A stretch of DNA of 64,000 bases, from positions 682,001-746,000 of the forward strand of contig QPGO01000007.1 of assembly GCA_008632985.1 (NCBI GenBank). Direction: 5' to 3'. Positions 13,145 through 54,149 of the stretch are shown in pieces (position 1 is the stretch's first letter; each line of letters starts with the position of its first letter). Under the pieces are notes generated by a model. That model was not told the origin of the DNA and made no database searches. It worked only from the letters and a program-made list of their open reading frames with translations. The position numbers and the translations under genes were made by a program. Source of the DNA: Psammoneis japonica (lineage: Eukaryota).

Positions 13145-13184
<40 letters not shown>

Positions 13185-13187
13185 AAA

Positions 13188-13251
<64 letters not shown>

Positions 13252-20815: not shown

Positions 20816-21031
20816 TGATGAGTTTCCGTGACCAACTCTCCATTGACATTTCATGATCAAAAACATTGGCGAGTTTGGCGAGCACAGATGTGTCTTGTCG
20901 CTAAAGCAGTGTGAACCATCACAACACACATGTGCATTTGTCCGTTGGATTCTCACAAGTGGCGTGCGGCAATGAAAATTCGCGGACGGTGCTGAATTTT
21001 TTCACCACAATGCCACATCTTGCACGTGTCA

Positions 21032-22340: not shown

Positions 22341-22811
22341 TTAAGAGCGGCTGGACGAGCTTCTCTTGCCACCCTTGCCCTTGCCCTTGCTGCTACTACT
22401 GCTGCTTGAAGGATGCGATGGCTTGGTGACATAGCTGCTTGAACTTGAGCCACCCTTGCTCTTGCTACTGGATCCGCCCTTGCTCTTGCTGCTGGATCCG
22501 CCCTTGCTCTTGCTGCTGGATCCGCCCTTGCTCTTGCTGCTGGATCCACCCTTGCTCTTGCTGCTCGAACCGCCCTTGCTCTTGCTGCTGCTGCTGCTGG
22601 AGCTCGCACCCTTGCCCTTTGGAGGTGGATGCGTTGGCGGTGGAGGAGTCGGTGGTGGAGGAGTCGGCGGTGGAGGAGTCGGCGGTGGAGGCGTCGGCGG
22701 TGGAGGCGTCGGCGGTGGAGGCGTTGGCGGTGGTGGTGTCGGTGGTGGTGGTGTCGGCGGTGGAGGCGTCGGTGGATGCGGCGGGGGCTTGCTGCTGCTA
22801 GAACTTGACGA

Positions 22812-22847
<36 letters not shown>

Positions 22848-32170: not shown

Positions 32171-33676
32171 CTAGTCGTTCGGCGGCACATCCTTTTCATC
32201 GAGATCGAGAAAATCCGAAAAGGAGCCAATCTCTTGAGGAAGCATCTCCGTGGGAGTATCATCCCTTTGCTTGAATAACTCTTGGAGAAGTGCAAGGTCG
32301 GGATTCTGGCAGTTTTTGCACGAACACTTTTCGAGGGAGCATTTCGTGCCGCTTTCAAAGCACACACAATACTTTTTGAGGCACCTGCACAACAAGAGAA
32401 AACGATAGAACGTCAGTTATTGTGACAGATTTATCAAAACATGCGGCCTTCCATGAGATCAAGCATTCCTCACCTATTGTTCTTGCACGCACAGCCTTGC
32501 CCAACCTTGCGCCTCGGCCGGTCTTCAAAGGCATCCGCACGCCTGGCCTTGATCCCCGCCATGCTCTTTGTTCGAATACCTTTTGGCCCCGCATGGGCCT
32601 GGGTGTTTTGGCACTTTTTGCACTGGCATATTTTGGGGTCGCAAAACTTTCCCTTGCTAAAGCAAACGCAATACAGCTTTAAGCAGCGAGACCTGGGACA
32701 GCTGCATCCACCTGCTCGGGCATATGATCGAGCCGCCGTGGCAGGTTTCTTGTCGCTCGACTTTTTCTTCTTGCCTTCGGTGCCCTTGCTAGTAGACAGT
32801 TTTCTTTGTGGTGTCGAAGGAAGAAGAAGCGGTGTCCTCGTCAGGGGCAGTCTTCTTGGTGGTACTGAAGGAAGCAGCAGCGGTGTCCTTGCTACTAGGG
32901 ACAGTCTTCTGGGTGGTATTGAAAGAAGAAGAAGCAGCGGGCGGCTGCTTTTCTGGTTCACCATTCCCGGAGACCTTGCTCGACGAGATCTGCTGTAGAA
33001 CGCGAGATGACGGTGGGTTATTACTCTGGAATTGAATACCAATATTGACCGAAACGACGTTGGGTGCTGCTCCAGCGTGACGGATATCCACTGGGCGACT
33101 TGTTGCTGTTGCTGCACCGTCTCGGGCGGAGATTTACGACTCTCCATAGAGCCACTTCGTTCGCTTCCGAGTCGGAGCGCCGTTCGTCGCTGCTGAAACC
33201 CTTGAAGGAGCTACTGTCGGTAATGGTCGTGACGAGACTTCGGGCGACGGAAAGAGAGGCTCGCCCAAGAGGAGGCCTACGGTAAGGTCGGACGAAATCA
33301 TGGACCGTTAGTTTGGAAGGACAGATTTGATAGAGCGTTTGACTCTTGGGTCGTCCCAGTCACCGTCGTCTTTGGCGTAAAGAGCGGAAGAGGTTCCAAG
33401 CATGGATCGTCAGCTGACCGCTGACGCATCGCTGGGATCAAGCGTGGCTTGGTTTGTCACGTCATTCTCTTCGTTATGAACACCGGTAGAATCTGTATGA
33501 CTAGCAGAGATGACCGTTGGTACGGCGAAGTTCTGATTCTCTTTCATCAGCACCATCCCGGCAGCCGCGTCTGCTTCTGGTGAGTTATTGGAGAACCTAG
33601 CTTTCTTGGTTGTTGGTCCTGCCGGAGTTGCCTCCTCAGGATGGCGGCTCTGTAAAGACGGCGGCGAGGTCTTCAT
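32171..33676 (-). CDS. Tesmin/TSO1/LIN54-like CRC (two CXC domains) protein; 5' part broken across frames
   Basis: CSCPRSRCLKLYCVCFSKGKFC..CQCKKCQN, linker RRADAF, GCACKNNR|CLKKYCVCFESGTKC..CSCKNCQN with intron 32473-32385. Upstream coding-like pieces lie in different frames, so the start is uncertain. Confidence 0.75.
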
Positions 33677-34173
33677 GGTGATGCGTCGATTGTTGTTGTG
33701 GAACGAGGTCCAACCGCCAAAACTGTGAGAGCCAAGCCGCCAAATTGAAAATGTCACACCAAACTTGTGAGCGTTTGGCTTTCTCGTGGTAAAAGCTAGC
33801 GAAATTGAATTTCCACTCCCGCGCAATAAGTAGGTGCTTCCGTCATGACGTCAGCGAGCTAAACTAACGGAATCCATCGCAAATGGCGCGGAGATCATGA
33901 TCACCGACCGTCTACGGTATGGTATATCAGCTGGAAGAGCAAGCGATGGTAGTTTGAGATGATGCGTTTGTGAAAAGCAGCATGTGGCATTGACTGGTTT
34001 TGGTGGAGGCTGGTCGGGCTCCAAAAGCTAGCTTCTCTCAAGGTGGCTTTTCCATGTTGCGGACGAGCAAAAGGCAAGAAGCCTACCTTCTGAATCCGAC
34101 TTGATTTAGCTTTAAAAGAAGAAAAGTCTATGTAGATAACATTGGTTTATGTACTGCGGTTCTCCGATAAGTG

Positions 34174-35875
34174 TCAGTCACTAGCGTTGGAATCCGCGCT
34201 TCCTTTTCTTCCTCTTGTCCGAATTGGTTTCAATCCAGAAACATCTCTCGCAAGGCCCACCAACTCTTCCGTCGTACCGTCTGGATCTTTTGGAGGCGGC
34301 TTTTGACATTGCAAAAAGCATACAATAACCGTAATATCGTCCGTCCTATCCTCATAGTGCAACCATAGTTCATAGCTTGCCCTTACAACTTGCTGACACG
34401 CCTCCAGTGGATTCTCGCATTCCGCACAAAGATCAATCACAGCTTGGTTCGTCATGAATTCAAACACCCCATCCGAAGCCAAGACGAGAATCTCATCATT
34501 GGACGTGAGCTCCGTTGTGAGCATTTCCGGTTCGGCACAAACACCCAACGCATCCGCCACGGAGTCCCCAATCGATCTCGTAAAGGCACATCCGGGATAA
34601 TCCTTGTTGGGGACCCACACGCGTGGTGGATCTCCCTGTTCGTCAATGTCTTCGCCCAGTACCATGTCTCCCCAATTCTCGTGCATGGGTTCTTCGCCAT
34701 TCATTTGGTCAATCGACATGACAGACGCACCCGCACTCTTGACACGTTCACGTTCGTCCAAACGATACGGCGTTTGATCACGTGACAACGGCACGGCAAC
34801 GAGCTTTCCAGCCTTGACGAGCTTGGGTGGCGGTTCTTTGGGTACATCTCCATTTTGTTCCTCTTCGGTAGGATCACGTTCTTCCACCTTTTCCTCTTCG
34901 GCGTCTGGAAGATTTTCAGACACACTCCCATTTTCGTGTGGTGGTGCGTCGTCCATGACACGGTGTCCCAATACCACCCGACTGTCGCCGACATTACAGA
35001 CGCAAAGACGACCATGATGAAAGGCTGCCGAAATGGCTGTAGTTCCACTCAATTTATCCTTGATGGCGGCATCGTCATGCATGGCTTGATTGCATTCCGT
35101 ATGTGCCCTTTTACACGCTCGTTCATACTGTGCTTCGGTCAGAACCGGCCACTCGGACGGATTAAAAACTCCCTTGCTGTCCTTGCCTTCGCTTTGCAGC
35201 TTTTCACGCTTGGCCGTGGCGGCATCGAGGAGTTTGCGATACCGCATGGCACGGGTCTGTCGTACATATTTCGCCATGAGTTGGGGGAGTTTTTGCTTTG
35301 CAAATTTCGCACACGAATGACCGTGGGTGCCGTGGCCATCGTACACGACAAACAAACTATCGCCGTCTTCGCCTGCAAATTTGTGTGTAATGGAATACTC
35401 GTCCTGATTTGCCTTGTGAACGTCTAATACGGGATTGAGAAAAAAAGAAAAAAAGTGAGCAGACACGCAAGTAGACTACACGCGGCACAGTCAAGAACAA
35501 CCAAATGATGCTTTCAAAACCACCGCGCATCATCAATTCTACTACCATAATTAACCACATACCATCCGGATAATATCCTCGTTGTGACAAAAACGCATAA
35601 TCCATGACGATTTTGTTTCCCTCTTCTTGTCCCAAAATCACGTGAGACGATCGCACACTGCCCTTGGTCCGCTTGACCACTTCTTCCGGCATGAGCTGAC
35701 CACTGGCATTGAGTTTGGGCGGGGGCCTTTGTGGAATTCCCTTTTTGTACATGGACATTTGTCGGGCCTTTTGGCCTCGAGATCCGCTACCCAAACGCTC
35801 GGTATGACCAATTCCAACACGGGGTTTTTGTTTGGTAGGCGGTGTGGTGGTTTCTCTGGAAGGTGTGCAACCCAT
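34174..35875 (-). CDS. PP2C-family protein phosphatase, intron 35562-35424
   Basis: MGC N-terminus (acylation-like), SQRGYYPD|DVHKANQD, VYDGHG, SGTTA, NVGDSR, AFTRSIGD, LASDGVFE, DDITV. Confidence 0.93.
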
Positions 35876-36548
35876 GTTGAATTTGATTACTTCAGCACTA
35901 ACAACGACAACAAGAGCCTGACGACTCTGCTGATAAGATATCCCTTGGATACAATGAGAATGCGGCGTTCTCGTCGCTGTTGTGATTGAAGGGCTTGAAG
36001 GGCGTGTTTTGTGGTGTTTCGGTGTTTCTTCACTCTGAGATGAATCTAAAATCGAATCTTACCTGGAATCTTTGGATAATTTCCTTCAGATACGATGAAT
36101 TTTGTTTGTACAAAATCTGAAATTTCATCTCGTCAATCAATATATTAAGCGGCAAATACATATATTTGAATATAATTATTCATTGCGTCAAAGTTATCAT
36201 TCTATGTGCGAAAACGCCGTGACAAAAAGCGCGTGTCACAAACTCGTGGTCACAAAATGGACACAAAATGAAAAAAGACTGAAAATTGCGACGAACTGTA
36301 GGAAGTAAACACAATTTTTAATTTAAAACTTAAAAAGGGGCACACGTTGACACTTCATCCACTCAGTTTTGTCAGAAGGCGTGCCTAGACGTCTCCCACA
36401 GAGCGGTTCAAGTTGGCAATCGGGCACAATGTCGTCATCCAATTCTCGCAGAGACACTGCTTTTCTGCCATCTCTAGTAGAAAAGCAGAAATAGTTTTCA
36501 AAACTTTACAAGACGCAAAAGTTGACACACACCCCAACTCATTCCTCC

Positions 36549-38114
36549 TCACGCCCGAACAAACATCTCAGCAGGCATACCGTGCTTGGGGCGTTGCACT
36601 AGATACGTCTCGACCGGTTCAAGTGCGTAGTCGGGAGCAATGTCATAATCCAATTCTCGCAACAACAGGGCCAGCACAAGTGTTCCTTCTTGCAGCGCAA
36701 AGCGCTGTCCAGGACAATAGCGCCCGCCGGCTGAAAAGGCCAACAAGTTTTCTCGCTTGGCCGCGGCAACTTTATAAGACTCATTTCCAACAGGTCGCTC
36801 CACCCATGTACCATTGCTCGTCTGTACGACCCATCGTTCTGGATGAAACTCTGTGGCACAATCAAAGTTGTGCTCTTGTCGGTGCAAATGATAGAGTGGA
36901 ATGATCGCGTAGGAACCGGAAGGAGCGACGAAACCTCCGTTGAGTTTGAGGTCTTTTGTCAATGTCCGTGTGGTTGCTGTGACTGGGGGGTGCAATCGAA
37001 TCGCCTCTGTCAATACAGCATTGACGTAGGTCAATTCGGAAATGTCGGGAATGCCTTTGTCCGTCCAAACACGACGAATCTCTTCCAGACAATGGTCTTG
37101 GATTGTCTTATGCTGCTTTAGGTAGTAGAGAGCATATACCAACGCAATAGAGGTTGTATCATACCCAGCAAACAGAATGCTCAACAGAGTGTCAATCAGC
37201 ACACGCTCTTCCTTCATGGTTTCATCCAACAACAACAAGTCCAGAAAGTCCTTGTTCTTCTTTGCTGTGATCTCTTCGATAGTCGTTTCCTTCATTCTGC
37301 TCTCCACGATTTGCATGAGATTACTTCGAATCAGTCGATCCGCGGCAGCATGCTGACGGTTAAGCTTGGTGGGAATCCAGTACAACGAGTTGAATGGCGA
37401 CAGAGCCCCTCGCAAACGACGCCTCGCTTCTTTTTGCATAAAGCCAAAGGCTTGCGCTTCCTCACCCAACTGCAGATTCTTACAATTGCCACCATCCATT
37501 CCAAACGCGGTTTGTATAAACACATCAACCGTGATGCATTTGCACAAGTCGGCCAAATCGACCTTTACTTTGGCTTGGCCCGCACTCTGTATGCTTTTCA
37601 CCAATCGATTTGTTACAGCCACCATGTCGGCCTTGTAGGACTCGACCGCCGAGGGTGAAAAGGATCGTTGAATCAAGATTCGATGTGTTTTCCATGCTTT
37701 TCCATTCATAATGGCCAAATTCGAGTTTCCAATAAACTTGGCAAAGTGATACCGTACAATGGAAGCCATTTCCCGGTCGGCCGTGGCGTTCAAAATGGTT
37801 CGAACATCGCTGGCATGCCAAGCGGAAAACGCTCGTTGGTTCAAAATGTAGTATCCCGTCTGACCAAATTCATTACAATGATCCATCATGACGAAACCAT
37901 GTCCCTTGTCGAAATCATCGCACACGAGATTCGGCAATTGTCCTGAAATCCAATGAGAATTGGGTGGAGAGGGAAGTTCCGGAAACGGCTTGGCTTTTTC
38001 GAGTCTGCGCTTGAGTAGAAGAAACCCGGCGGTTGCTGTGGTCAAAACGACACCCAAAGAAACCAATGATCGAGAAGAAGATGAATCGGATGAGATACTA
38101 GTATGCATTGGCAT
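36549..38114 (-). CDS. Cytochrome P450, 521 aa, intronless
   Basis: N-terminal TM plus Pro hinge, I-helix AGYDTT, EAIR (ExxR), PERW, heme motif FSAGGRYCPG. Confidence 0.96.
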   Translation of the reverse strand: MPMHTSISSDSSSSRSLVSLGVVLTTATAGFLLLKRRLEKAKPFPELPSPPNSHWISGQLPNLVCDDFDKGHGFVMMDHCNEFGQTGYYILNQRAFSAWHASDVRTILNATADREMASIVRYHFAKFIGNSNLAIMNGKAWKTHRILIQRSFSPSAVESYKADMVAVTNRLVKSIQSAGQAKVKVDLADLCKCITVDVFIQTAFGMDGGNCKNLQLGEEAQAFGFMQKEARRRLRGALSPFNSLYWIPTKLNRQHAAADRLIRSNLMQIVESRMKETTIEEITAKKNKDFLDLLLLDETMKEERVLIDTLLSILFAGYDTTSIALVYALYYLKQHKTIQDHCLEEIRRVWTDKGIPDISELTYVNAVLTEAIRLHPPVTATTRTLTKDLKLNGGFVAPSGSYAIIPLYHLHRQEHNFDCATEFHPERWVVQTSNGTWVERPVGNESYKVAAAKRENLLAFSAGGRYCPGQRFALQEGTLVLALLLRELDYDIAPDYALEPVETYLVQRPKHGMPAEMFVRA

Positions 38115-39693
38115 GGTGGGAGAGGGAGAGTATCTGCGTTGTATGCTCTACTTAATAAAATCAATGAGAAAGTTCTCGGGTGGAACGTTGAACCAACCGA
38201 ATGAATGAACGAACGACCTGAAGATAGAAGATAGAGATCATGAATCATCATCAGTCAAGTCTTGAGTCAGTCGTCCTTGCCACGCGTTCGGTCGTGAATG
38301 GGCGCGTGTCCTTTCGAGGGATCAATCGCACGAGCGATACGTGCGCATGCATTACGTACGCGCCGCACTACACACGCATTGTGTGTGCAGGCAGGCAGAT
38401 CAGAGCAGCAAAGAACAGGTTATCTTCATCGGGAGTCAACTCCAGGAATGCCAGATTCAGACAATGCCACTGCATTCTCATTTGTGCAGTCAGTGAGTGT
38501 CATGGTGGGAGAATGGTGCCAGCTTTCTGGCTCTGCAAACAACTCCACATTTTGGCGTTCATCACACACAAGTTCATGGTGACCATGTGCAACCACAACA
38601 GGGCCTGGCTCAATGTGCTTCACAAGGGTGACACATCATGCCCCACTCTTGTCCCATGCCAGGCCACAGGTGGGTTAACAAACATTCAACATTTCACCTG
38701 GGTTGCAAATGTCACTTTTTCTCAGTGCAACTGCAGCTCACTGTCTTCGAGACAATCTTCACAGCCGTGTTGCTCTGGATGACAACATGCCATGCCATGC
38801 CTTGCCTCAAGAGCTTCACCAGCTTGATGCTCAATTTTGCATCTTCCCCTCCAATCATCATGGATGGAGAACATCAGTGTGGCAGCAGACATGTGCTCTG
38901 TGTGCTGTCTCAAAGCTCCGCTGTGCCAGCTCTTTGTGCACTTCCGTCAATGACTTGCATCTGCCCAGCCACAGGCCTTGCCACAAGCTTGATGACTCTG
39001 GATCCCCCAATGGGAAGGTGCTGCCACATTTGGGTCTTCTGTCTTCATCTCTCTTGGATGGAGCCCAACAATTGCTGTGGAACCAGGGTGTCTTGTGGAG
39101 GCTTGGATCAAGAGTCAGAACCCCAACTCTGACCCCAATGCCTTCCAGTTGCTCTCATTCCACCTCTTCAACTCCTCCATTGCTGCCTCTGTCACAATCT
39201 TCACCCATCATCTCTGACATTCTTTGGTCACTCAAACCCAGGAGTCTCTCTTGACAATCTAGCCAACAATTCAGTGGCCATGCCTTTGTCGCCATGTCAT
39301 GAAATGTGCAGAGTTCACATGAGTCATTGCCACTCATGGTTGGCAATCATCCACAACAACAAATTGTGGCTGGTTGAACAACCATGATTTGGTTTAGCAC
39401 CCTTTCCAGGTTGCAGGGATTTTTCACCCATGTGCATCAGAGTTCTTGTCTGACATCACAAAAGAGCAGGAAAATGCTTCTGCCATGCTTGAAGCCAACA
39501 GCCCGCAAGAGTGGCTTGTTTGAACTTGCAAAACTTCTTGCCCTGCAATGGCTCAGTCATGAAGTCTCCAAGCATGTCATCAGCAGGACAGCATTGCACA
39601 CCATGCATCTTGTTTGGCCTGCTTAAAAACTTGTCATTCAGCACCCCCAAGTTCTTGTGGCTTGACATCAGGTCATCCACATGGAATCAGAAG

Positions 39694-39927
39694 AGTCGAG
39701 ATGCAGTCCTGCAGCTGGGTGGGATGGACAAGACCTCGGAGGTTGGTGGCAATGTGAACGGCAACAGAGGCAAACAGATGCTTGTTCAAAGTCATTGTCT
39801 AAAAATTGTGACGAATGTCGTTGCTTCTGTTTGAATCAATTTTGTGATGAGCCAATTATTTCGAAGAGAAAATCTGAGTCTGGGTTGCAGTCGTGAGATG
39901 CGACCAGAATGATGTTGAGTCGTGACT
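39694..39927 (-). repeat. 3' LTR (AGTC...GACT)
   Basis: 220/234 identical to 46697-46930, no indels. PPT GGTTGAGAGGGAG at 39940-39928 on the minus strand. Confidence 0.95.
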
Positions 39928-42900
39928 CTCCCTCTCAACCAAGAGAGCTTGCTGGCCCACAAGAGCCTTTCCAGCCGCACGGAATGCATCGGTCCGCAGT
40001 CCCTTCGTGAACTGATCGGCTGGTTGCTCTAGAGTGCTGATGGGGTGGACATCGATCTCCAATTGTTCGACTTAAGTCCTAAACCAGTGGTGCGGGATGC
40101 CGATGTGTTTGGTTCGCGGAGACAACTTGGGCATGCGTGCGAACTTGAGGCACGCGGAGTTATCTTCGTACACAACGGACGCAGGCAGGACATTCTGCGC
40201 TACAGGCGAGTCATCGGTGCCTTGGGTTACGAGCTCAAAAGCCTTGGAGTGAGTCATGACAGGGTTTTGGCGGTCAGACGTTCCGAGTGCGTGGTGGTTG
40301 AGCTCCTTGAGAACTTCACGAACAGGGATGAGATCACGCACAGCTTGAGAAAGTGCGACACACTCCGCTTCCACAGTCGACAATGCTGCAAGAGTCTGCA
40401 GCTTGGACACCCAGACAAGCGGGCAGCTGGCGCAGCAGACAAGGCATCCAGTCCTGGACTTGACAGAAACTGGGTCTTGACCATCTTCCACACCAAATGA
40501 CCCCGTGAAGTCAGAATCGACGCAACAATCAACTCAATGATCTTGCGCAGGCTTGAGAATGAGACCTTCAGCAGCAGTTGCTTTGAGGCATCGGAGCATC
40601 CGCTTCACTGCAGCAGCGTGGGACGCTCGGGGTGCAAACGAGAATCGAGCTGCTTGATGTGTGGCATGTGCAATGTCTGGCCGGCTGTTCGCTGCCAAGT
40701 GCATCAACATTCCAACAACTGAGCGACAATCGCAGGGTTCATCAAAAGGTGGGCCGTCCGTGTCAGCACCAACAGCCGCAGGTGGAGCTGGAGCAGATGC
40801 TCCATTGCAATCCTGCATCTGTGCGGTGCGCAGGACCTTGTCAATTAGACCGGGTTGAGTGAGCAGAAATCGACCCTCGGAGAGCTTTTCGATCTTGATG
40901 CCGAGAAAGTTGCCGACTTCTCCTTCGTCTCTAAGTTCAAATGCGTGGCGATGTTCGTCGTCGGAGACTCCTAACTTGCGAATTTCGGCTTCTAGAGCTT
41001 CAGCTGAAGCTCCAGCAAAAACGGTGTCGTCGACGTGTGCCACACACATCATGCCCTCTTTGAAATACAAACAGGGATCTGTGGCTGAAGGTGCCCATCC
41101 GCGCTCGGTTAAACCAGCTCGTAACTTCTCGCAGAAGCCCTTGGGAGACTGTTTTAGGCCGCACAGTCCTTTCAAAAGTTTGAGAACCACATTGAGTCCC
41201 GACCTTGGCGCAAATCCCTTCGGCGGTGTCACACAAACTTCTTCGGCGATGTCAGCTTGGCAAAAGGCTGTGGTGCAGTCCACCTGACGTGCAGTCCATC
41301 CCTCCTTTAATGCCGCAGTGAGCATGAGTCGGATGCTGGACCATTGCACAACCGGCGCGTGGGTTTCAAAGCAGTCGACTCCTTCTTTCTGTAAATCACC
41401 GCGGACGCAGTGTCGGGCCTCATGCTTGAGAGGGGTTCCATCTGGGAGTCTCTTGAGCTTCAGTGCCCATGTGCCTGGAAGTGCATTCACGTGCGGCTGA
41501 CGCTCGACTGCTTTCCAGGCTCGACGATGTGTGAGTGCGTTGACTTCAATTTTCATCACCTCAATCCATTCGTCGGCGTCCGGACCTTTCAGAGCATTGT
41601 GCAACGAAGGCACATCAGGGTCCTTGGTTTTCTTGCTAGCTGCGTGGGCTCGTGGATCGCCGATGTTGATGGCACCACTGTCCAAATCCGTCTCGAGAGT
41701 CGCCAGATACGCCAGCTGAGCCTCGTGTCTGATCGGCAGTGGCATTTCCTTGACGGAGCTGAAGCAGACCTCATCTACAAACTTGGCAGAGTTGAGCTGT
41801 CCCTTGGTTGACCGTGAAGACCGTCGCAGCCCTGGCACTCCCTCTGGATTCGTCACAGGAGGTGTCTCGACTGGGGGAGGAGCTGTTGGTTCCGTCGGCA
41901 CTTCGGGTGGCGGAAGTTCGTTGCCATCTTGAGGTTCAGGTGGCTGAATTGGCGTAGAGTCCACAGAGTCTGTGGGAGTTTGAGTCGCAGGTGGGGCTGG
42001 TGGCGTTGGATGCTGAGTCGCAGGTGCGACTCGATCGGCAACGTCGTCGCGAGAAGTGGGTGAATCCGGCACAGTGATGATGGAGCAGGCTCAAAATGGC
42101 CGTGAATGCGTGTTGCTCTGGCCAGTTCTCACTCTTTACGTTGACGCTCTGGAGGGGCAAGCCACTCATCGTGTAAATGAACTGCTTGATCCTTCTCCAG
42201 AGGGATGCACATCGATTGGTTGAGGCACAAGTGTTCCCAGTGATCGGGTGGATCCGTCTCCCTCTCGATTGATGGTGCGGCAGTGAAGAGATCATCAAAG
42301 ACCACATGACACTGAGGAGCAACACTTCCAGTTTGAAGATTGAGGACCAAAGGAACCTCACTGGAATGGATGGCACTGAGTCCCACGAACAAAGCGCGAC
42401 GAGTGCGAGGCTCCCAACGCGGGAGCTTCTTGCCGGAAGCGAGGGTCGGATCAAGTGCGTACGCCGGACATCCCCATGTGTGAATGTCGCGCAACCGATG
42501 TCTTGGCACTGTTGAGCCGGTGAAAATGTCCGCTGGGCAATGTCCCTTGGAATTTGGGGTGACATTGTAGATGTGCGTGGCACAAGAAACTGCCATGGGC
42601 CACAGGGAGCTGTCAATTCCCCCCTTCCAGTGGATTGATGCATGAAGCAACATCGCTCTCGCCATGTTGGAGATGCTGCGGATGCCCCGCTCTGCGACGC
42701 CGTTCTGATGATGGGCGTTGGTTCCACAAAACGGAGACGTTGTTCATGTTCTCATGTGTGTTGTGCAAAAGCGTTGGCCTTAAAAGCGCCACTGTCGGCA
42801 AGAAATTCTTGGACGATGACGCCGTGGTCCAAAGCATGTTTCTCAAACGCTTGCTTCGCTTGCATCGTCTCAACAGCGGAGAAACCTGGTTGGTGCTCGA

Positions 42901-45900
42901 CCTGGACATGGCCAGAGGCATGGTCGACAAAGATGCAACCGCCCTTGAATTGCTTGGACGTGGCTTTGCCATGTGAGTCGAAGGTGCGGCCTAAAAGGCG
43001 GGACTCAAAATGATCAACGCTGACAGCCTGACCCGGTCGAAGATGGTCAGCACGAAGGGCCCCGTCGCATTCAGGGACTGTCGACTTGTGAGCAGATCCA
43101 AGGGAGCATCCATGACCTTTAGCATGTTCGCATGCCTCGCATCTTGGGTGGTCACACTTCGCTGCGGACTTGAAACGGTTCGATGGGAACGGAACTGCGC
43201 GGAGAAGTGCTTGGACGCGACCAAAGTTCAAATGGCCAAAACGGGCGTGCATTTCGAGAAGAAGCTTTTGGCCTGCCGTGAGGTTTTGATTCTCCTCGTT
43301 GAGGATCTGTAGATTCACTTGAGGAGTGGCAGATGCGCCCTTGGTCATCGACGCAATGGGCAAGTGGCTTGATGGATGACATGGCACGACCAACTTGCCT
43401 GTCCCGTCAACATGTAAATGGAAAGTGGTTTCATCGCCCTCACACTTCCCACGCACCCCCTTCTCTTCGTTGAAGAGGCATTGAGGCGACAGCAGGCGCT
43501 GACGGGCTCCAGGAACGCAGTGTGCCATGGTGTTCAGTTGGATGGTGGCGCCACTCGGCATTGTGAACACCCATGCAACCGGACCGGCACCCTGGATGGT
43601 GAGACCGTTGGCAATCCCATTGATCTGCAAGGGTTTCTTGGGAACAGTCACAGGCCCCGTAAAATCATCTTTGTCGGGGGCAACAGCCAACGTGGCACCA
43701 GCATCCATGACGACCGTGAGAGCCTCGTCCGACAGACCGATGAGTGCCTGCGGATTGGATGCAAGGAGGTCGGCTTGAGATTGTCCGGTGAGTGGTTGGA
43801 TGGTGGAGGTGTTGTAGACGACTGGTCTAACACTTGCTTCCTCCAACAGTTCCACAGGATCTTGAAAATGGGCAGTGTCCACGATGTGATTCGGCAGACA
43901 GAGCTCGTCAAACCGGAAGAAATCTGGGCTGAAGTCCTCAAGAGCGTCGAAGAAATGTTTCTGGTCGTCGAGAGGTTCCAGTTCCTCACAGGCATCAAAG
44001 AAGGCTGATTCGTCCATCGCATCAGACCGTTCAGCGACTTCTAAGCTCTCCCAGTGGGCCTTGAGACGAGTGCTCAGTGCGTGTGATGGATGGCGCGCGA
44101 CAAACTCGGTGAGCACTTGCGTGCCTTTGATCCTGTGACATTCGAACAGTGACCCCGTATCTAACACTATCCGGTCATCCAGCTCTTCCACAATGTGGTA
44201 GACTTGAGAGCTGGCGGTCGAAAAACGACTTGGCACGTTCGAGAATGGATGCTCGGGCTGTTGACCGGCACAAATGCTGACCATGCCATCACTGCAACGG
44301 ATGGGACCATCCAGGAGGCTGGAAACCCGTGCAAAGTTGGGAGTTTGCGCTGGCGGCGTAGAGCTCGAGGGACACATGGGATCGGAGCAAAGCAAAGATG
44401 TAGCACCGTTTCCCAAAACATGGCGGCGAGCCAGAATGTGAACAGCTTGACTCGTCCCAAGAGTGAGCGACGCGAAGTGGGCTCGTCTTTGACGTCCTCG
44501 TGACAATCATCCGCATCCAGGACCTCTGGATTGTAGAAATCGAAGCCACGATACGTGGCACACGGAGGTGAGTCGTAGCATGCGTCTTCAAAGTGTACGT
44601 CGTGTTCAAGGATGAGATCTGACTTTGTGTCGTCTGACAGCATGTCCGTCAAATGTGCGGGAGCGTCAAAGAACTCATCTGGATGCTTGACAGAGCACAG
44701 CTTCAAGGCCGGAAACAACTCAATGGCCGGTGGTTCGTTTTCAAAGGTGGAGAAAGCGTCGGAGCATTCGCAGAAGTCATCGGCGTCTTCGGGAGTGACA
44801 GTCTCAACCATGATGGGAGACACGACTGGATCCACGACTGAGGTGAGTGGAGGTGGGCTCGTTTCGTTGCAAACCACCTCAGTGCTAACGACTGCATCGC
44901 TCTCCCTCTCGGCCGAAGAAGCCGGAGCAACAACAATTGCAGCAGTGACAGGGGCGGAACAGAAATCCGGGTCGGCAACGGCACCCGTAGCCGCGCACCA
45001 CATTCCCGTGAAAACCAACTCGTTGGGGTCGGATTCGTCTCCCTCTGGTTCCTTGGCAGTCTGAGTGGGCGGACCCATGGGCACGCCACTGTCCGGATCA
45101 GCAACGGAAGACAAATTCCCGGCTGGGGTCTCCTTGGGAGGGCACCTGTGGTCGTCGGTGTGGTCCGCGGTAGAGTGCTTCTGGTAGATTCCAGGTTTGT
45201 CGGCACCCTTCGCTGTGCACGTGGCACACCACTTCCATTCCTTGCCATTCTTGTCCTTCTTCGTTTCTCCATCAAATTTAGTGCGCCAGGCAGCAATGGG
45301 GCGCCTCTTCTTCTTGGAAGGGTTGTCTGCAGGCGGCGGATTGGGAGGAGGATCGTGCGCGGCGGTTTGGCGTTGCACTTCGGGCACGTCTTCTTGGCGC
45401 ACCCCTCGAGACCACAACCATGACAGTGCTTTGTCTTCCCAGGGTTGTCCGTAGTCGAAAGATTACTCTCGGGTAGCTTGGCGACCAATGCAGGCCACTC
45501 CCCGTCCTTCATGAGCTCATTGTGTTGCTCCTGAATCCACGCAATGATGCCGACCGGTCCAAGCGTGTTGCAATCGCTGTCGGACACGATGTCAGCAGGA
45601 TTCTTGAGGTGGCACTTGCGTTCCATAGTCTTGACGTCGTCGAGCTTGTTGTAGACTCGCCGATTGAAGTGTTCAGAGGACGTAGAGGAGATCTTGTGGA
45701 GCAGCTTGGAGCTTGTGTTCGCCGGAAGCGCGCAGTCGGTCTGCACAATTTTCACGATGCGAAGAGCTTCGGCAGCGAAGTCCGTGCAATCCTCGCCGGG
45801 ATGGTCAACCAAACTGAGGTCTTCTAGCTGCTTCTTAGCCGTCTCAACATCCGTTAGAGCGCTAGTGTTGCAAGCATCGAGAGCCATCATGAATGGAACA

Positions 45901-46684
45901 GATCCAGGGTGGTCTTGGCAGTCCGAGAGATGGTTGAACTTGGTCTCGATTTTCTCGCGAAAGGCATCAGTGATTCTTGAGTGAACGAGAAGTTGAGAGA
46001 GCCCGATGTCGTCGAGCTCGATCTCATCGTACTTGGCATCATCGGTGGCTGCTTTCCCAACCGTGTGCTCGTTCACGAGATCGGTCACAGCAAACTCGTG
46101 AAGATGGTCGAAGACATGTTGAACCTTGTCGTCGCTGTTCTTGACATGGTAGAACGTCTGCTGACCGTGGGCTTCTACTAGATCTCGAATGGTCTTGACG
46201 AAATGGTCCTTGTCAAGCTCGTTGATGGGACCGTCCGAAATCTCAAGTCGACCGTTGAACTTGGAAGTCATTGTGGAAGCTTGTTGATCGCAGAGATGTC
46301 GTTCTATCGAGTCGAGAGCCTTGGGATGACGGCGCTGAGAGGCGAATCGGTGGGTTCTGTCGTTGGATTGTTCGCAGCTGTTGTTGAGTTTGGAACCACC
46401 AATGTAAACCCCGTGGGTTGGGTGAGTTCCACCACGTGACGGCTTGGTTGGAGCCGGAGGAGCGGTCGCCGTGGCGTCAGCGGCCATTGCGTCGGCAAAC
46501 GCCTTTGCCAGAACAGCCGGATCGATGGCAGCCATGATGGAGAGTGTGGCACGAGAGGTTCTTGTTAGAGTGAAGACGAGAGAAGCAAGAGAGACTCAGC
46601 TGTTTCCCGGGTTTGCTTCAAAATCAAAAACCGAAAGCGTCCGTGACGATGACTCGGTCAGGAGCTCTCGTCAACGTGCAAATT

Positions 46685-46696
46685 GGGCTCACAACC
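46685..46696 (-). promoter_or_regulatory. Primer-binding site (half-tRNAiMet type), mutated
   Basis: GGTTGTGAGCCC directly abuts the 5' LTR. The expected complement of the tRNAiMet anticodon arm is GGTTATGAGCCC, as in copia/Ty5-type priming. Confidence 0.75.
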
Positions 46697-46930
46697 AGTC
46701 GAGATGCAGTCCCACAGCTGGGTGGGATGGACAAGACCTCGGAGGTTGGCAGCAATGTGAATGGCAACAGAGGCAAACAGACGCTTGTTCAAAGTCGTTG
46801 TCCAAAAATTGTGACGAATGTCGTTGCTTCTGTTTGAATCAATTTTGTGATGAGCTGGTTGTTTCGAAGAGAAAATCTGAGTCTGGGTTGCAGTCATGAG
46901 ATGCGACCAGAATGACGTTGAGTCGTGACT
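46697..46930 (-). repeat. 5' LTR (AGTC...GACT)
   Basis: Direct repeat of 39694-39927, followed by the TSD AGAAG. Confidence 0.95.
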
Positions 46931-49900
46931 AGAAGGGGTGCTGCTTGCTGTTGACTGTTTGATTGGTGGCAATGCATGGATTGCATGGGTTGAACTTGGA
47001 CTCTGTCTTCTCCCCAAGTCTTTGCAAAATTGCTTGTGCTGAAGTGGAGCTGTGGTCAACATGCCATGGATGGCTCTGATGACTTGGACATGAAGGACTC
47101 TCTTGCTTTTTTCCAGGACCAGCACATGCAGTCCACACAGATTGGGGTCAATGCTCACCCAGCATGTTGACCAACACTTTTGTGATCTTCATCACAATCT
47201 GGTCTTTGCCTTCCTCAGGCTCTGGCATCATTGGCTGCACAAACACACTTGGTGCATTGGTGCTCATGACATCATGCTCTTCATTGGCATCAACAATTGC
47301 TGTGTCATCAATGTTTTTTCTGAGGATGCCGGGGCTGGCTGAGGTGTCTGGCCACTCTTGGGTCAGCTTCCCTTTGCAAACCACTTGCCCTTTTGTGCGG
47401 CCATCATGTTCATTGGTTGGGAACATCAAGGCCACCATTGTCTTGGCCCTTTCAGTTGGAGTCATGTTCTTGACCAGTGCTGGTGCAAAGCACACTTGCT
47501 CACACAGTTGCTTCACATCTCCTCTTTCTCTGAGGCATTGTGCCCCCTCTGACCACATGCTTTGAGGCCTTCATGCAGCAAATGTTGTTGGGCAAATGAA
47601 ACGCCCTTCTCCCTGATCAGAGTCAGTCATCAATCTTGCACATGAAGTGTGCTGGCACCATTGCTGTCTCCATGTCATGATCTGTGTCATCCTCTGGATT
47701 GGGGCTCATGTTTGTTCTTAAATGATGGCAGTGTTTTAGCTTGTTTCTCTCTTGTTCTGCTTCATCAGTGTCTGTCACTCCTGCAAATCAAACTTTTGTT
47801 TCTTCTGGATTCACATGATTTCATGTTGAAGGTTGTGCCATGTTTTGTGCCACCCCTGGCTGCTCTGCCAGGCATGCTGTTTGCCTCTTCCACCAGCCTT
47901 TCTCCTCCCCAATTGTTGTCCTCATCAGCTTGGTCAGCAGCATGATCTTGTGGTTCTGCAGCTCCTTTGTGCTCCTCACTGTTTTCACACTCTTTGTTTT
48001 TTTCACTTCTGCAGTCTTCATCTGGTGCTGCTTCTTGGATGCCGTGCTGTTGACCAGGACCAGATGCTCTCTTGTCAGCTGGAATCTCATTTGCTTCTTC
48101 ATGTTCATCATCTGAGTCTGCCTCATCTTCATGTCATGCAGTTGGCATCATTGTGATTGTCTTTGCATTTGCCCTTGCTGTTGCTTTCATTGATGTTGCC
48201 TCCTGCAGTCCAACCAGCATCATGCAAATTGTCTCCATGTTTGCCCCTGAATTTAAGTTTTTCCTTGACACCTTGTCAGTGGCCATCTTCTCAACCGCCT
48301 GTGTGCTGTGCATGTCAGTCAAGGGTGCGGAGGTGCGCTTGGTGCAGGGAATCAAAAGCTTGTCTGTGAGCAGGTTTGCAGTGCTCCACCCTTGGGCAAA
48401 TCAAAATGTGGTCACAGGTGTGTGCTGTCAACACCACGTGCATCTATGGTGTTTGTTCTTGGGTCATTCTCAACATGAGAAATCACAAATTTCCAAAACC
48501 TGAGCTGGAAGTGTTTGTCACAATCAAGGTTCCTTCATTGCATGACAGTGTGTGGGCTGCAAGTGTCAGAAATCCTTTCCTTTTGTGGGTGCACATTCAA
48601 CACAACAGCTTTCTTGATCACAGCATGCTCACATGTCAACTTGGGCATTGTCTTGTGCAGCACACAATGTGCAGTGGCTCAAGTTTGCTTCTTGACGGTC
48701 TGCATGCTCTGCTCAACTTTGGGAACATGGTCTTTCATGATTGTGGAGATCAGCTCTAGATTCATGCCATCAGCCACTTCTGCTGGCATTTCCTTGAACT
48801 TGGGGTCACACTCAACAAAGTCAATCTTGAACATGGCCATGCTGCGCTGTTCTTGGAGAATCATCATGTCCAATGCTTGACACACTTTCTCTCTGCTTCT
48901 TGTGTGTTTCAGGTGGCATGGCCACAACATTGTTCAACTCATGAGAATGATGCATGTGCTTGGCCTTGCCTCATGTTGTGTCCACTGGTGGACCCCAAGT
49001 GGCCACCAACCTGTCCATGTCTTCAGTTGTGATGGACAAGTTCTTCACCTGGTCGGAACATGAAAACAGCTTGAAATCCCTCACATTGGGTGCTCCAGCT
49101 TCACAACACAGTCTGGGTGCTTGTTCAGCATTTGCCATCTCCCTCTTGGTGCATCCCATGGAACTCTGTTCTGCCATTGAAACTGTGGCTCCAGATGCAC
49201 TCTTGTGCTTCATGTTGGTCTGTCTCTTTGTCATCTGTGTCTTCTTCTTTGACAGCATGCTTGCATGTGTCTCACTTTCTTGGAGATCTTTTGCACAGTC
49301 AAAGAACTGCTGGCTTGGCACAAAGGCATGCAATCCAATGTCATTCACTTTGAACACCATGACTTGCTTGCCAGTCTTCTTGTCCAGCAGTCAGAACTCA
49401 CCTGCCACTCTGTTGTCACATGCAATGCAGTGCTTGCTCTTCACATCCTTTGGACTGAAGATGTTCTTTGTCACCATGTTTTGCAATCCAAGCTTTTCAC
49501 ATCCCTCCATCCAGGCATTTTGCAGTCCTTGTCCAAGGCATCCACTCCTGTGTTGGTGGACAGATCAATCTTGATCTTTGCTGGACACATGTTGTGTGCT
49601 GGTCTCTGGCTTGCTGCCATGTGCTGAAGGCAGAGCCATTGTTGAGGATGAGTTCATCTGACTTTTGATGCCAACATCAGCTTGGCTCAGGCTTGTCTCT
49701 GGCCTCTCTTTGTCCAGTTGCAAGTCACACCATGCATGCTTCTTCTTGCTGCCTTTTCTGTGGCTTGATTGGTTGGATCTGGATGTTGCATCAACACTTG
49801 TGCTGTCACTGTCCACTGATGAGTTGTCTTCATCTCATGTTTGTGCATGGCTCTGTCCCTTGTCACCTGGCTTCTTCTTGGCATTCCTGAGCCACTGATC

Positions 49901-51630
49901 ACAGGCAATCTTGCTCTCATGCTTGCAGCCAGGGAACTTCTTGTGGCTCAGTTTGCCACAGCAGTGGCACATCACAGGGTCATCTTGACTGTCCTTCTGT
50001 GCATGACCATGGTCCTTTGGATTGTCAGACCTCTCATTGTTTCTTTCATTCTTGTTGCTGTTCTTGTCATTTGAACCCTCGCTCCTCTCATTCTGACACT
50101 TGCAAGGGTCATTGTCTTTTGAATGACTCAGCAGCACATCCATTGCCTTGTCTGGGGTTTTTGGATGCTCTTGTCCTTGCCCAGGCTCCAATCTCTCACA
50201 AAGCTCTTCTTTGAGCTCTTGTGGAAGCAGTCATTGCTGTTCTCTGTGAACAAGTGTGTTGTCCATGATTCAAGTTCTGCTTTCTTCAGGTCAGCTTGAA
50301 CTGTCACAGCACTGTCCTTGTGCTCCTTGGTGTTCTCAATGAGCCCATCTGGCATTTTGCTTCCCAGACTGTCGCTTCCAGCATCTTGCTGATTCTTCAA
50401 TCTTGACAGACAGTTGTCCAGCAATTCACTCTCTCATCACTTCACTTCCAGCATGTGCTTCAGGAACTTGGCAAGTGCATGGAATGGGTGTCATCCTCTT
50501 GTTGAGTTGAGTGCAAGGGATTGCACAGGAAATGGATTTCACCAGACTTTCCACAACTCAAGTCAGGGTGTTTTTGGCCATTTCCCATCTCCCGTCTCAA
50601 AGGTGTTCCTTTTGTTCTTGGGTGTCCATGTCAGGGGCACACCAACCAAGTGACTTTCTCCCTGAACCTCCCTGTGTTGAACTCCCTCCACTTTGCCACA
50701 TCATTTCAAGACATTTTTTATTCAACCACCACATTTTGTTGTGTTTCTGTCCGGATTTTTCAATGAGCATGCCCACATTTTAGAAAAGAGTCTTCATGGC
50801 ATTGGAGCTGTAATGAAATCTTGGCATTTGCCGATCACTTCCCCATGTCAACACATGTGATGACATCATGGCCACAATGTCAAGTGCAGTGTGTTTCATG
50901 CTGTTCCCACGTGGCTGCTGATGTCACCACAATGTCAGATTCTGGCACACCATGGTGAAATGTCATGCAAAGTCATGACATCAGGTCAGATTTCCCTCCC
51001 CCATCTTGAAACCATTGCACTTCTTTTAGAAGTCTTTCCCCACCTGCCACCGCCAACTGCCAACTGCCACCAAAACTGCCACGATGCATCAACAACTGTT
51101 GCCAGCAGATTTTGCCACCAAACACTTTCTCACTGACAATGCCAATGCATGACATGATTTGTTTTGCACTGATGAGTGCATCTGTGAAAAGAAGAGAGGT
51201 GAGAAAAAGTCCAAAAATGAACAAAAGCTGCTTTTGTCATTGTGCTGTTGTTTCATTCTCACATTCTCAGTGAGTGAATCACTCCATGGCATTTGACGGA
51301 CTCCATTGATTCAGCACATTTTTTTGTTTTCTCAACCTCTTGTTTTCCTTTGTTCTTTGTCTGCATTTCTGCAGGAAAATGCCAGCATGTCATGTGGCAT
51401 GGCTCAAGTTGACACCATGTCATGCGGGCAGCTCAAGTTGACACCACACTGTTTTTCAAAAAGTCTGGCCACAAATGGCAGACAAGGTTGCTCTTGTCTC
51501 AACATTTTGAGCAACTGCCTGGGTTGCCAGCTGCAGCTGCACCCAGGCAATGTCTTTCTGCAAAATTGTTCATGTGGCCTGGGATGCCTGTGTGAATCCC
51601 CGCCCCCCCCCCCCCACCTCTGAGCATCAA

Positions 51631-52072
51631 GACGGCCTCAGAGAGCCACATGGGTTTGCTCCCCGGTGAGACTGAGAGTGGTGCCTCCAAGGAAGGGGGT
51701 GCCATTCAATGTTGCAGACATGAAATCTCTGTCAAAAGGGTTTGGCTGCCTCCAAAAGCTGGTGCATGTGAATTGTTGGCATTTTGCTGGTTGTGGCAAC
51801 CTTGAAACTCTGCAAAGGACATGACAACCAGCAGCGACAGATGAACTTGCAAAAAAAAGTGAGTTCAAAAATTGTGGAAGAGATGGCCTCAGAGAGCCAT
51901 GGGTTTGCTCCCTGGCAAGACTGAGAGTGGTGTCTCTAAGGCAGCGGTGCCATTCAATGTTGCAGACCTGAAATCTCTGTCAAAAGGGTGCCTGCAAAAG
52001 CTGGTGCATGTTGATTGTTGACATTCACTGGCTGTGGCAACCCTGAAAGTCTGCGGAGGACATGACAGCCAA
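51631..52072. repeat. Direct duplication of about 200 bp (51631-51835 / 51882-52072)
   Basis: Shared GGCCTCAGAGAGCCA, GACTGAGAGTGGTG, GTGCCATTCAATGTTGCAGAC, GAAATCTCTGTCAAAAGGG. Confidence 0.85.
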
Positions 52073-54149
52073 TGGTGATGGACACACTTGCAAAAAAAAC
52101 CCAAAAAAGTGAACTCAAAAATCATGGAAAATGAACTCTGCTGCAGAGCACATTGCAAATCACAGAGCTTGTGGCTGCAACAATGCACTTTCAACTCACA
52201 TCAGGCATGGGGAGGCTGCAGCAGTGGCAGCCACAAAGACACGAACTCTGCCATGGAGCAAGCAGGAGCTGCTTTGACAATGTCAAGCACTGGGAGGGGC
52301 TACGGTGGCACTGTTGATGGCAGCTGCTGTGCAAGCGGTGCAAGACAAAAGCATCATGCCCAAAATCTGACATTGCATTTATGAGCATGCACAAAAAAGG
52401 CATCCACATCACAAGGAAATCAGACATTGCAAGAGGAATCTTCATCAACAAAGGAAAACATCAGTTTCAAAAAAGCATTTTTTTTAAAAAGGATGGATGT
52501 CTGCATTGTTCAAAATGACCACATTTTGAACAAATCCACAACAACCGCAGGCCATGCCATCATTGTTCAAATTGAAAATTGAGAACTTTGGTGATGGACA
52601 TTTCCAGCACCTGCAAACAGCAACCACAAAAACTTTGAAAACTGCAAAGGACACATCCAATGGAGCTGCAACCAACACACAAAATCAACTTTTCAGCTGA
52701 ACATTGGACACAAAGCATGGACAACTGGAGAGTGCAACTGGGGGCGGACTCGGTCATCCTTCCCACATGAACGGCACCAACAACAGGAAGCCCCAAACCA
52801 TCATGCCTGGAATGACATGGACAATGAATGGACAAGATGCCACAGATGAGAGAAATGATCAAGATTGATGCTGCAAGGTTTGCTTCATAAGATGCAGAGT
52901 GGGAAACCAAGCAGGCAGAGGAAGACAAAGGCATTGAAGAGGCAAGTGTGTGCCACATGTGTGTCTTGCATTGCCATTTCCTTTAAAAAAGAATGGCACA
53001 CAGTTCTTTTGCAGTTGCAAATGTCATTCACAGGCAACCAAGAAAGCAAGGGTGGCACTGATGAAGACGGTGTGGTGGGAAAAGAAAAGAGGTGCAGCGG
53101 GTGAGGCTTCAACAGAAATGGAGGAAGAACAAGCCGCAGATGTTTGTTCAACAAGCAAAGATGAGTGCAGCACAGACAGTGGCACAGAGGAGCACTTGTT
53201 CACCCAGAACTCTTCATGGTGTGCCCCACAGAGTCCAGCTGTGAGGATCAAAATCTGAGTGTGTGAAGAGCAAGAAAGAGTGGCCTGCAGTCAAAGGCAT
53301 GCAGTGTGAGCTGCAAAGAGTGGTTGTGATGGTGGTGCAATGGTGTGCATTGTGTTGCTGAAAAATGAAATGGCAAGGCCAACAATCTCTCTCTGGTGGA
53401 CGGGTGCATTGCGTTGCGCAATGTCAGATTTGAGCCAGGCAGTTCCAGTGGAAAACAGCACAAACACCCAATCTGGCTAGGTCAGTTCGTGAGGGGCCAG
53501 CAAATTGACATTTGCGATGTGACATCATGCCATTGTGCAAAAGAAATCTGACATTGCAGAATGACATTGTGGGATGACATCACATCATGGTCGTGCAAAA
53601 AGAAAGTGTGATGAGTCTCTCACATTTCCCTTGTGCCTTGATCCAGATGCTCCAACAAGGCCATGGAGCAAGGTGTGGTGTGCAGTTGAGGAGCTCAGGG
53701 GGAGGCAGGATGCTCAGCCATTGCTGACAGCCCCGCAGAAAAACCAGCAGCATTGGGCACAGCAAGCAGGGCAAGACAAAGAGCCACAACACCAAGCAGC
53801 AAGCTGGCAGAGAGAGCACACCCAAACAGGAGCAGCAAGCAGCAGCCAGAGCAAGGGAAAGACACAAGATGCTTTGCAGCAAGAGTGATTTGACAAGCAC
53901 CAAACAAGAGACACAAAGAAAAACAAACTCAGGAGCTGGAGAGGCTCTCAGGAAAGCATCCAAAATCACTGGAAAAATGATGACCCAGCACCAGAGAACA
54001 TGATGATGAGGTGCCTTCTTTTGGCAATGACACCAAAGACAGCAACAAAGACATCAAGGACAACATGAGTGGAGAAGCTGTAAAGAGACCACTGGGCAGA
54101 TGTTGTGGCCATTGGCAAATGATGTTTGGCCATCACTGAGGGGCTGCAT

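Follow-up and report, generated by a model that had tools for sequence, protein, structure and literature searches.

What kind of mutation has separated the two long terminal repeats (LTRs) of a retrotransposon since it integrated, and was the chromosome itself the substrate? The locus raising this question lies in a stretch of 64,000 nt of contig QPGO01000007.1 of Psammoneis japonica (positions 682,001 to 746,000, forward strand), hereafter the window, and holds what is, judged by its coding content, a broken Ty1/Copia retrotransposon on the minus strand (Table 1). A repeat search of the window identified the LTRs as two direct repeats of 234 nt lying 7003 nt apart, and because the 5-bp target-site duplication AGAAG borders the pair on both outer flanks, the two LTRs can be assigned to one insertion. 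In a gapless alignment they differed at 14 positions (94% identity); all 14 differences were transitions, there were no indels, and 13 fell in pyrimidine-purine (YpR) dinucleotide steps, exactly as the original prediction had it. The class counts given there were also reproduced, namely three double differences with TG in one copy and CA in the other (39710-11, 39747-48, and 39853-54), five steps with CG against TG or CA (39759, 39779, 39794, 39893, and 39913), one TA against CA (39800), and one TA against TG (39858). The sole difference outside a YpR step, at 39855, abuts the double at 39853-54. YpR steps span 110 of the 234 LTR positions, yet hold 13 of the 14 differences (binomial P = 4.3e-4), and the divergence was 11.8% at YpR positions vs. 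0.8% elsewhere. Among the 55 YpR steps of the LTR, seven are CG in both copies and none is TA in both; the TA steps surviving in a single LTR occupy the contexts CTAA and TTAT, which are slow to change (see below). The LTR pair shows that both kinds of change, at TA and at CG, occurred after integration, TA being the ancestral state that we infer, rather than observe, at the two TA-linked sites.

These differences have a direct effect on dating. The Kimura two-parameter (K2P) distance between the LTRs was 0.0637 for all sites and 0.0081 outside the YpR steps, the latter value resting on one difference. The age of the LTR pair is inflated about 8-fold by the YpR changes, and the earlier claim that LTR-divergence dating would be misleading at this locus is thus borne out.

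Control LTR pairs were sought among 41 metagenome Copia loci of at least 4.5 kb, where 11 candidates were found; seven of these had 0-1 difference and several were contig-end repeats, which may be assembly overlaps, so that the control rests mainly on four pairs. Of the 48 differences in the control pairs, 16 were transitions at YpR, 20 were transitions elsewhere, and 12 were transversions; CA/TG doubles were absent, and the share of YpR transitions in the window (13/14) differed from that in the controls (16/48; Fisher P = 1e-4). TA was present in both LTRs at 117 of 440 control YpR steps. The observed/expected ratio (O/E) of TpA was 0.40-0.91 in 80 related metagenome Copia loci (33-59% identity), none of the 80 falling under 0.40, which marks the depletion as specific to this genome. 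Repeats within the window itself were compared in 17 alignments, which overlap and are not independent; alignments of fewer than 100 columns, or starting in 22000-25600 or 26000-38000, had been dropped. They gave a transition rate of 0.160 at YpR vs. 0.065 elsewhere, and contained 70 CA/TG doubles, 56 CG-linked pairs, and 7 TA-linked pairs. In these alignments one YpR copy was enough for a column to be flagged as YpR, so that transversions at YpR are over-counted. The LTR observation is real and non-random.

The direction of change at TA was read from the reverse transcriptase (RT) frame of the element, which was aligned with 80 of 120 listed homologs (308 found), a column being considered conserved when its majority residue reached at least 70%. 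The element agrees with the majority at 164 of the 202 conserved columns. However, it has kept none of the nine conserved tyrosines that it covers (now five Cys, three His, and one Trp), compared to 164 of the 193 other columns (P = 1.3e-7). Neither His nor Cys occurs at any of 15 conserved Tyr columns in 63 of the 80 homologs. Among the 38 conserved residues that have been replaced, 14 need at least two steps and 24 a single one; the single-step replacements are 8 TA>TG, 3 TA>CA, 1 ambiguous (Ile>Met), 2 CG losses, 2 other transitions, and 8 transversions, TA losses making up 11-12 of the 24. In three of the TA>TG changes, the codon before ends in T and the replacement is Lys>Glu or Thr>Ala. 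A similar picture was obtained by tblastn with P0121, in which 21 tyrosines align to Cys (10), His (5), Trp (2), Tyr (2), Phe (1), and a gap (1).

The direction of change at CG was read from other copies of the family, by comparing family contigs with the window copy. All counts of private changes given here are from the best 40 of 738 variant rows, which are biased to sites where all other copies agree, none of which falls within the LTR, and which yielded 36 polarized events. These comprise 10 CG>TG, 8 CG>CA, 2 TA>TG, and 3 doubles with CA in the family and TG in the window, in addition to 7 other transitions, 5 transversions, and a single GA/TG double; TA was not gained in any of the 36. 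As far as sequence comparison can tell, the change from TA to TG or CA is thus shown in four ways, by the tyrosine codons, the RT replacements, the polarized rows, and the TA-poor older blocks described below, and that from CG to TG or CA by the other copies of the family. The two strands were hit about equally, with CG>TG 10 vs. CG>CA 8, Tyr>Cys 5 vs. Tyr>His 3, and, in the blocks, CA 3470 vs. TG 3339. Both outcomes were observed on both strands, and the substrate was therefore duplex DNA and not single-stranded RNA or cDNA. The original prediction had proposed that TA and CG both drain into TG/CA after integration, which is supported in the main by the polarity from the RT tyrosine codons, the family copies, and the flanking blocks. 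Its placing of the process on chromosomal DNA likewise stands, the strands being about equally affected and the LTRs differing from each other.

The same signature extends well beyond the element. Dinucleotide O/E values were determined in 1-kb windows, block edges were placed from 250-bp counts, and YpR shares were calculated over 30.8 kb of blocks. TpA O/E was at most 0.11 in 31 of the 64 1-kb windows, which fall into three blocks (Table 1), and CA and/or TG was at least 1.6 in all 31. CpG depletion accompanied by a gain of TpG/CpA was confined to the blocks, where CpG O/E was 0.02-0.59, compared to ~1.0-1.3 in most 1-kb windows of the genic stretches (~22-38.5 kb and 55.8-64 kb); TpA O/E in the genic stretches was mostly 0.4-0.95. 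The block edges are steep, with 5 TA and 19 CG at 38250-38499 followed by 1 TA and 2 CG at 38500-38749 on the left, and with a rise in the 250-bp TA count from 1 to 9 on the right, near 55800. The YpR steps of the blocks consist of CA (46.7%), TG (44.9%), CG (7.2%), and TA (1.3%), those of genic DNA of CA (28.4%), TG (29.4%), CG (25.8%), and TA (16.5%). The Copia element is intermediate, with a normal share of CG (27.5%) and a TA share of 3.9%; since its CG is normal and its TA depleted, loss of TA preceded that of CG. Its flanking blocks are older than the element. In the zone at 21000-22000, which adjoins a hypermutated block, TA is present at 1-5 per 250 bp, yet two of the four 250-bp windows contain 24 and 26 CG. 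The two arms do not coincide in this zone, nor in the TA-poor but CpG-normal body of the Copia element, which points to separate targeting of TA and CG.

The few TA steps left in the blocks are not a random sample. Of 93 surviving block TA, 81 have a 5' T or a 3' A, whereas 252 of 822 do so in the genic stretches (P = 1e-26). Survival, expressed as a fraction of the density in genic DNA, was 0.79 for TTAA, 0.32-0.43 for TTAG/CTAA, 0.06-0.21 for GTAA/TTAC, 0.009 for GTAC, and 0 for GTAT, ATAC, ATAT, and ATAG. On the assumption that genic DNA is a proxy for the ancestral mix of contexts, this suggests R-TA-Y as the preferred target, with TTAA nearly spared.

We consider it probable that two transition processes, each specific to a dinucleotide context, have acted in the chromosome on the Copia element, situated in a transposon-rich block, and turn TpA and CpG into TG or CA. 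A Ty1/Copia element would have landed in a transposon-rich, already decayed block of the nuclear genome of a diatom-like alga (ochrophyte), and after insertion both processes would have hit such blocks and not the neighboring genes. In the faster process, A:T would be replaced by G:C at TpA, on either strand and preferentially at R-TA-Y, giving TpG or CpA. The slower one would convert CpG to TpG or CpA, most simply by deamination of 5-methylcytosine (5mC) on methylated transposons, and jointly the two would collapse all YpR steps onto CA/TG. Both would be recorded in the LTRs, which started out identical and have hardly come to differ in any other way. Candidate enzymes for the TpA process would be a DNA adenine deaminase (ADAT2/TadA-like, as proposed for Bigelowiella natans) or one causing a mutagenic modification of thymine, and the process may serve as a defence.

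The thymine route is unlikely, although it retains some weight. Here, a TET/JBP-type enzyme would place 5-hydroxymethyluracil (5hmU) or 5-formyluracil at transposon TpA, and mispairing with G or wrong repair would give T>C. TpA being palindromic, T>C on either strand results in CA or TG, as observed, and TA and CG do decay in the same blocks here. According to the passages available from a study of dinoflagellates, 5hmU prefers TA and TC, is found mostly in repeats, and overlaps 5mC there (PMC11572971). However, a TpC signature is lacking, with one TC>CC in the 36 polarized events. Furthermore, 5hmU has A as its main pairing partner and is a weak mutagen, which counts against this route. Adenine deamination is also what the authors favor in the searched text of the B. 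natans preprint (10.64898/2026.01.13.699255).

A process at CpG alone is a rather improbable explanation. It would have only methylated CpG decaying after insertion, with the three doubles and the five single differences all stemming from CG, with the TA differences being background or TA being the derived state, and with the low TA content inherited from a TA-poor master copy. Some observations speak for it and weigh against the two processes proposed above. A TA allele is present at two LTR differences only, and a YR-degenerate 32-nt LTR pattern, used in the search for an outgroup LTR, had no matches in the metagenome contigs. The polarized private changes include 18 CG losses out of 36, compared to 2 TA losses (and 3 doubles). 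Fast TA sites, however, would be under-represented in the best-supported rows because such rows would be heterogeneous among copies. Much of the TA loss of the element may also predate its insertion, having occurred in chromosomal ancestors of the family. Finally, each double requires one change per LTR, from an ancestral CG or TA, and for all three the ancestor may have been either. Seven CG are intact in both LTRs and five were hit once, from which a plug-in estimate for a CG-only origin gives a per-copy loss of 0.26 and 0.45 visible doubles expected (Poisson P = 0.011), but a full fit of the CG-only origin, with loss up to 0.42, is not rejected (simulated P = 0.145). A model in which the doubles arise from TA yields per-copy losses of ~0.88 for TA and 0.23 for CG vs. 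a background of 0.004, these values being model-dependent. TA ancestry of the three doubles is likely but unproven.

Other observations are difficult to reconcile with CpG decay alone. A master copy with all nine conserved RT tyrosines replaced, including that of the catalytic motif (YVDD>HVDD), could hardly transpose itself, and the polarized events include no TA gain. The two TA-linked differences of the LTRs are transitions at precisely the step of which the flanks retain almost none (TpA O/E 0.00-0.1), and the background outside YpR predicts ~0.03 differences at the four positions involved. The lack of YpR steps with TA in both LTRs (0/55) also contrasts with the related pairs (117/440).

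It is very improbable that the signature is an artefact in which heavily modified bases of silent chromatin, with 5mC at CpG and a modified A or T at TpA, were systematically miscalled in a long-read assembly, with TG/CA replacing true CG/TA, although the signature is indeed restricted to blocks where modification would be expected. In addition, no contig from run X1 reads the window letter in the variant rows scored above; such window-private letters are missing because Logan contigs drop rare variants. Run X1 contains 63% of the sampled 31-letter words of 39000-42000, which speaks against miscalling because TA/CG errors every ~30 nt would leave almost none, and 664 of its 2940 aligned contigs match the window at 99% or more; the assembly itself may derive from run X1, which is therefore not an independent check of the base calls. 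A TpA O/E of 0.02-0.05 over 30 kb and the retention of 0/9 tyrosine codons represent a near-complete loss, and known motif-linked error rates are far below this. Editing before integration, of retrotransposon RNA (ADAR-like) or cDNA (APOBEC-like or by an A-deaminase), with the chromosome not being the substrate, can be practically dismissed, for although editing of LTR retrotransposon cDNA is described for vertebrates in the available text of PMC4866542, and ADAR favors U before the edited A according to the preprint text (10.64898/2026.01.13.699255), the LTRs share U3/U5 templates so that RNA editing cannot make the two differ, the changes are strand-symmetric and not one-sided as from editing of a single strand, and non-element flanks and 30 kb of other sharp-edged sequence carry the same signature.

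The anatomy of the element can still be recognized (Table 1). All long frames between the LTRs are on the minus strand, and the coding region is split into at least four frames. Family contigs mostly have one extra base relative to the window copy at three places, and such a base is present in most of them near 42078. By tblastn, six metagenomic Copia proteins match from 41835 to 39955 (RT and RNase H) with 54-57% identity, and four of them also match 42665-42027. On the minus strand the integrase core (42665-42027) lies upstream of the RT (41835-39955), which is the Copia order. A stretch led by TGG follows the 5' LTR and is, from its sequence, a candidate primer-binding site. The LTR termini are AG...CT, with inverted ends AGTC/GACT, and not the canonical TG...CA. 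Termini of the latter type are common, but not obligatory. The LTR boundary at 39694 is shared with other copies, as contigs of run X1 join internal sequence to 39694/39696 and a contig of run X2 has a loose end at 39694.

The family to which the element belongs is very abundant in this organism. In run X1, 2940 contigs align to the element with at least 80% likeness, 664 of them at ≥99%, 859 at 95-99%, 974 at 90-95%, and 443 at <90%. The depth in the bin 39740-39979, made up of two-thirds of the LTR on its inner side plus the 52 nt of internal sequence next to it, was 10445, about double the ~4500-6000 of internal bins; a doubled LTR depth is expected from two LTRs per element plus solo LTRs.

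Table 1. Features of the Copia element and of the hypermutated blocks in the window
Feature	Position	Strand	Basis or remarks
Old hypermutated block	1-21000	.	TpA O/E 0.02-0.11, CpG O/E 0.13-0.59, CA/TG 1.3-2.3
Old hypermutated block, left of element	38500-39693	.	Sharp edge toward P450 gene, within ~250 bp
Target-site duplication AGAAG, left	39689-39693	+	Read in alignment with flanks
3' LTR (element orientation), 234 nt, termini AG...CT	39694-39927	-	Repeat search and alignment
Polypurine tract GAGAGGGAG, directly upstream of 3' LTR	39928-39936	-	Sequence read
RNase H-like polyprotein end, read through a stop	39955-40533	-	tblastn
Reverse transcriptase frame (RVT_2), YVDD reads HVDD	40534-42090	-	Pfam PF07727, 117.5 bits vs. 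cut-off 31.6; comparison with 80 homologs
Integrase core, in a frame other than that of RT	42027-42665	-	tblastn, 57-62% identity to P0132, P0145, P0141, P0128
Frame with putative protease/pre-integrase part	42752-44506	-	gag_pre-integrs zinc finger PF13976, E = 4.2e-5, 23.7 bits, under curated cut-off 28.4
Gag-like frame	44703-46595	-	Assigned by position only; no Pfam match
Primer-binding-site-like TGGTTGTGAGCCCA, overlaps last base of 5' LTR	46684-46697	-	Sequence read
5' LTR (element orientation), 234 nt	46697-46930	-	Repeat search and alignment
Target-site duplication AGAAG, right	46931-46935	+	Read in alignment with flanks
Old hypermutated block, right of element	46936-55800	.	TpA O/E 0.00-0.11, CpG O/E 0.02-0.37

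The old blocks contain further remnants. In the blocks (1-21000, 38500-39693, and 46931-55500), TAA and TAG are present at 3.5 and 1.4 per kb (both strands), whereas the genic stretches have 13.4 and 18.5, and TGA is nearly the sole stop codon of the blocks; long open frames are common on both strands of the blocks because TA, which is part of TAA and TAG, is nearly gone. None of 24 block open reading frames (ORFs) scanned reached the Pfam cut-off, and the 597-aa ORF at 9029-10822, which had no matches among 1.84 billion representative proteins, is probably a false frame. At 3959-4495 on the plus strand, tblastn identified an old remnant resembling Copia RNase H (E down to 9e-11, 22-23% identity), and the tyrosines of its homologs align to His or Cys, with none kept. 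Repeats of 85-266 nt ending in (GA)n are present at 11448-13435 and 18524-18781, in at least four copies with 73-95% identity and with inverted arms at 13469-13534 and 18460-18525; this family may be of the miniature inverted-repeat transposable element type or consist of solo LTRs. Inverted-repeat pairs at 2049-2587, 5073-5994, and 8774-9119, with 72-84% identity and 3.6-6.5 kb apart, suggest nested or rearranged old elements. An assembly gap of 85 N is located within the same block (13060-13144).

The genic stretches encode the small subunit of ribonucleotide reductase (RNR), a PP2C, a P450, and a DnaJ-like gene, all as long single frames. The RNR small subunit shows 80-88% identity to those of diatoms (Proboscia, Dactyliosolen, Thalassiosira, and Ditylum) and bolidophytes (Triparma), with no identical entry, and the homologs of the P450 gene share at most 42% identity with it, a protein atlas yielding generic P450 clusters only. 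At 22341-25565 on the minus strand there is a frame of 1074 aa with a G+C content of 57-71%, which consists mostly of 30-nt and 48-nt tandem coding repeats and has an N-terminal DUF7467 (PF24269, E = 6e-13).

The LTR pair makes it possible to time hypermutation against ordinary substitutions, and the suggested preference for R-TA-Y over TTAA is a rule that any candidate enzyme must reproduce. There are also consequences for annotation. Unless YpR sites are masked, LTR ages in such genomes will be inflated ~8-fold. Hypermutated elements also escape homology searches, as the block ORFs illustrate, and ORF finders give spurious long frames since TA is part of two of the three stop codons.

To our knowledge, point mutation aimed at transposons is textbook knowledge only for fungi, in the form of RIP (repeat-induced point mutation), a C>T change. 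The first report of an A:T>G:C equivalent, restricted to TpA, dates from 2026 and concerns one chlorarachniophyte, as far as the searched preprint text tells (10.64898/2026.01.13.699255). A saturated TpA footprint in a diatom-like genome would extend the phenomenon to a second major algal lineage. A more far-reaching proposal, which we hold tentatively and with slightly more doubt than belief, is that an active 'reverse RIP' operates in diatom-like algae. An enzyme system would read duplex R-TA-Y in silenced transposons and convert A:T to G:C hundreds-fold over background, independently of CpG methylation. If shared with chlorarachniophytes, it might represent an old genome defence of the stramenopile-alveolate-rhizarian (SAR) group that erases TAA/TAG stops and all tyrosine codons from invaders.

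Compared to RIP, the process at this locus is similarly transition-only and dinucleotide-specific, acts on chromosomal repeats and transposons, ruins coding capacity, and inflates divergence. The main context of RIP is CpA, and it raises TpA. Here the direction is opposite, in that TpA is destroyed and CpA/TpG are increased in the blocks (TpA O/E 0.02-0.1, CA/TG 1.6-2.3). RIP is described as C>T in the available passages of PMC7296669. The decay of methylated CpG known from vertebrates and diatom transposons resembles the present case in converting CG to TG/CA on both strands and only in transposon blocks, but explains one arm only. CpG-context methylation has been described at a diatom Copia locus (Maumus et al. 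2009, PMC2806351), and the available text of that paper has no passage on LTR transitions, RIP, or dinucleotides. Dinoflagellate 5hmU is comparable as a TpA-preferring mark on repeats alongside 5mC, but belongs to another lineage, and a mutational consequence is not part of the available passages (PMC11572971). APOBEC/ADAR editing, as described in the available text of PMC4866542, similarly produces clustered, context-specific transitions in LTR elements. Such editing is, however, strand-asymmetric and takes place before integration, whereas the changes observed here are symmetric, separate the two LTRs, and also affect non-element flanks.

The closest known system is that of B. natans, the preprint on which was the sole match in our literature searches on this question; these turned up nothing on hypermutation aimed at TpA in diatoms or any other stramenopile. 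According to the searched preprint text, 231 of 302 nuclear mutations in mutation-accumulation lines were in two integrated viral regions, and 230 of these 231 were A>G or T>C on TpA, at ~6e-7 per site per generation or ~1000x background (Mettrop et al., 10.64898/2026.01.13.699255). The same text reports that 1-kb windows poor in TpA and rich in CpA+TpG cluster, that reverse transcriptase and DDE transposase are over-represented among coding sequences poor in TpA, and that an ADAT2-like DNA adenine deaminase is proposed to be responsible. CpG, flanking bases, and diatoms are each without mention in the searched text, and flanking contexts may be given in Table S2 of its supplement. The two cases share the change of TpA to TpG/CpA on chromosomal DNA, its location in foreign or silent regions, and the coupling of TpA depletion to an excess of CpA+TpG. 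They differ in lineage, B. natans being a chlorarachniophyte (Rhizaria) and the organism of the window diatom-like by RNR similarity, and in the kind of evidence, which is experimental for B. natans (mutation-accumulation lines) and comparative for the window. They also differ in degree, as TpA is about halved in the B. natans viral regions (Rho 0.45) compared to an O/E of 0.02-0.1 in the window blocks. Almost no other mutation class accompanies TpA loss in B. natans, whereas here CpG>TpG/CpA occurs at an equal or higher frequency. The signature itself was thus already known, and what the window adds to the searched B. natans text is the lineage, the near saturation, the CpG arm, and the flanking rule.

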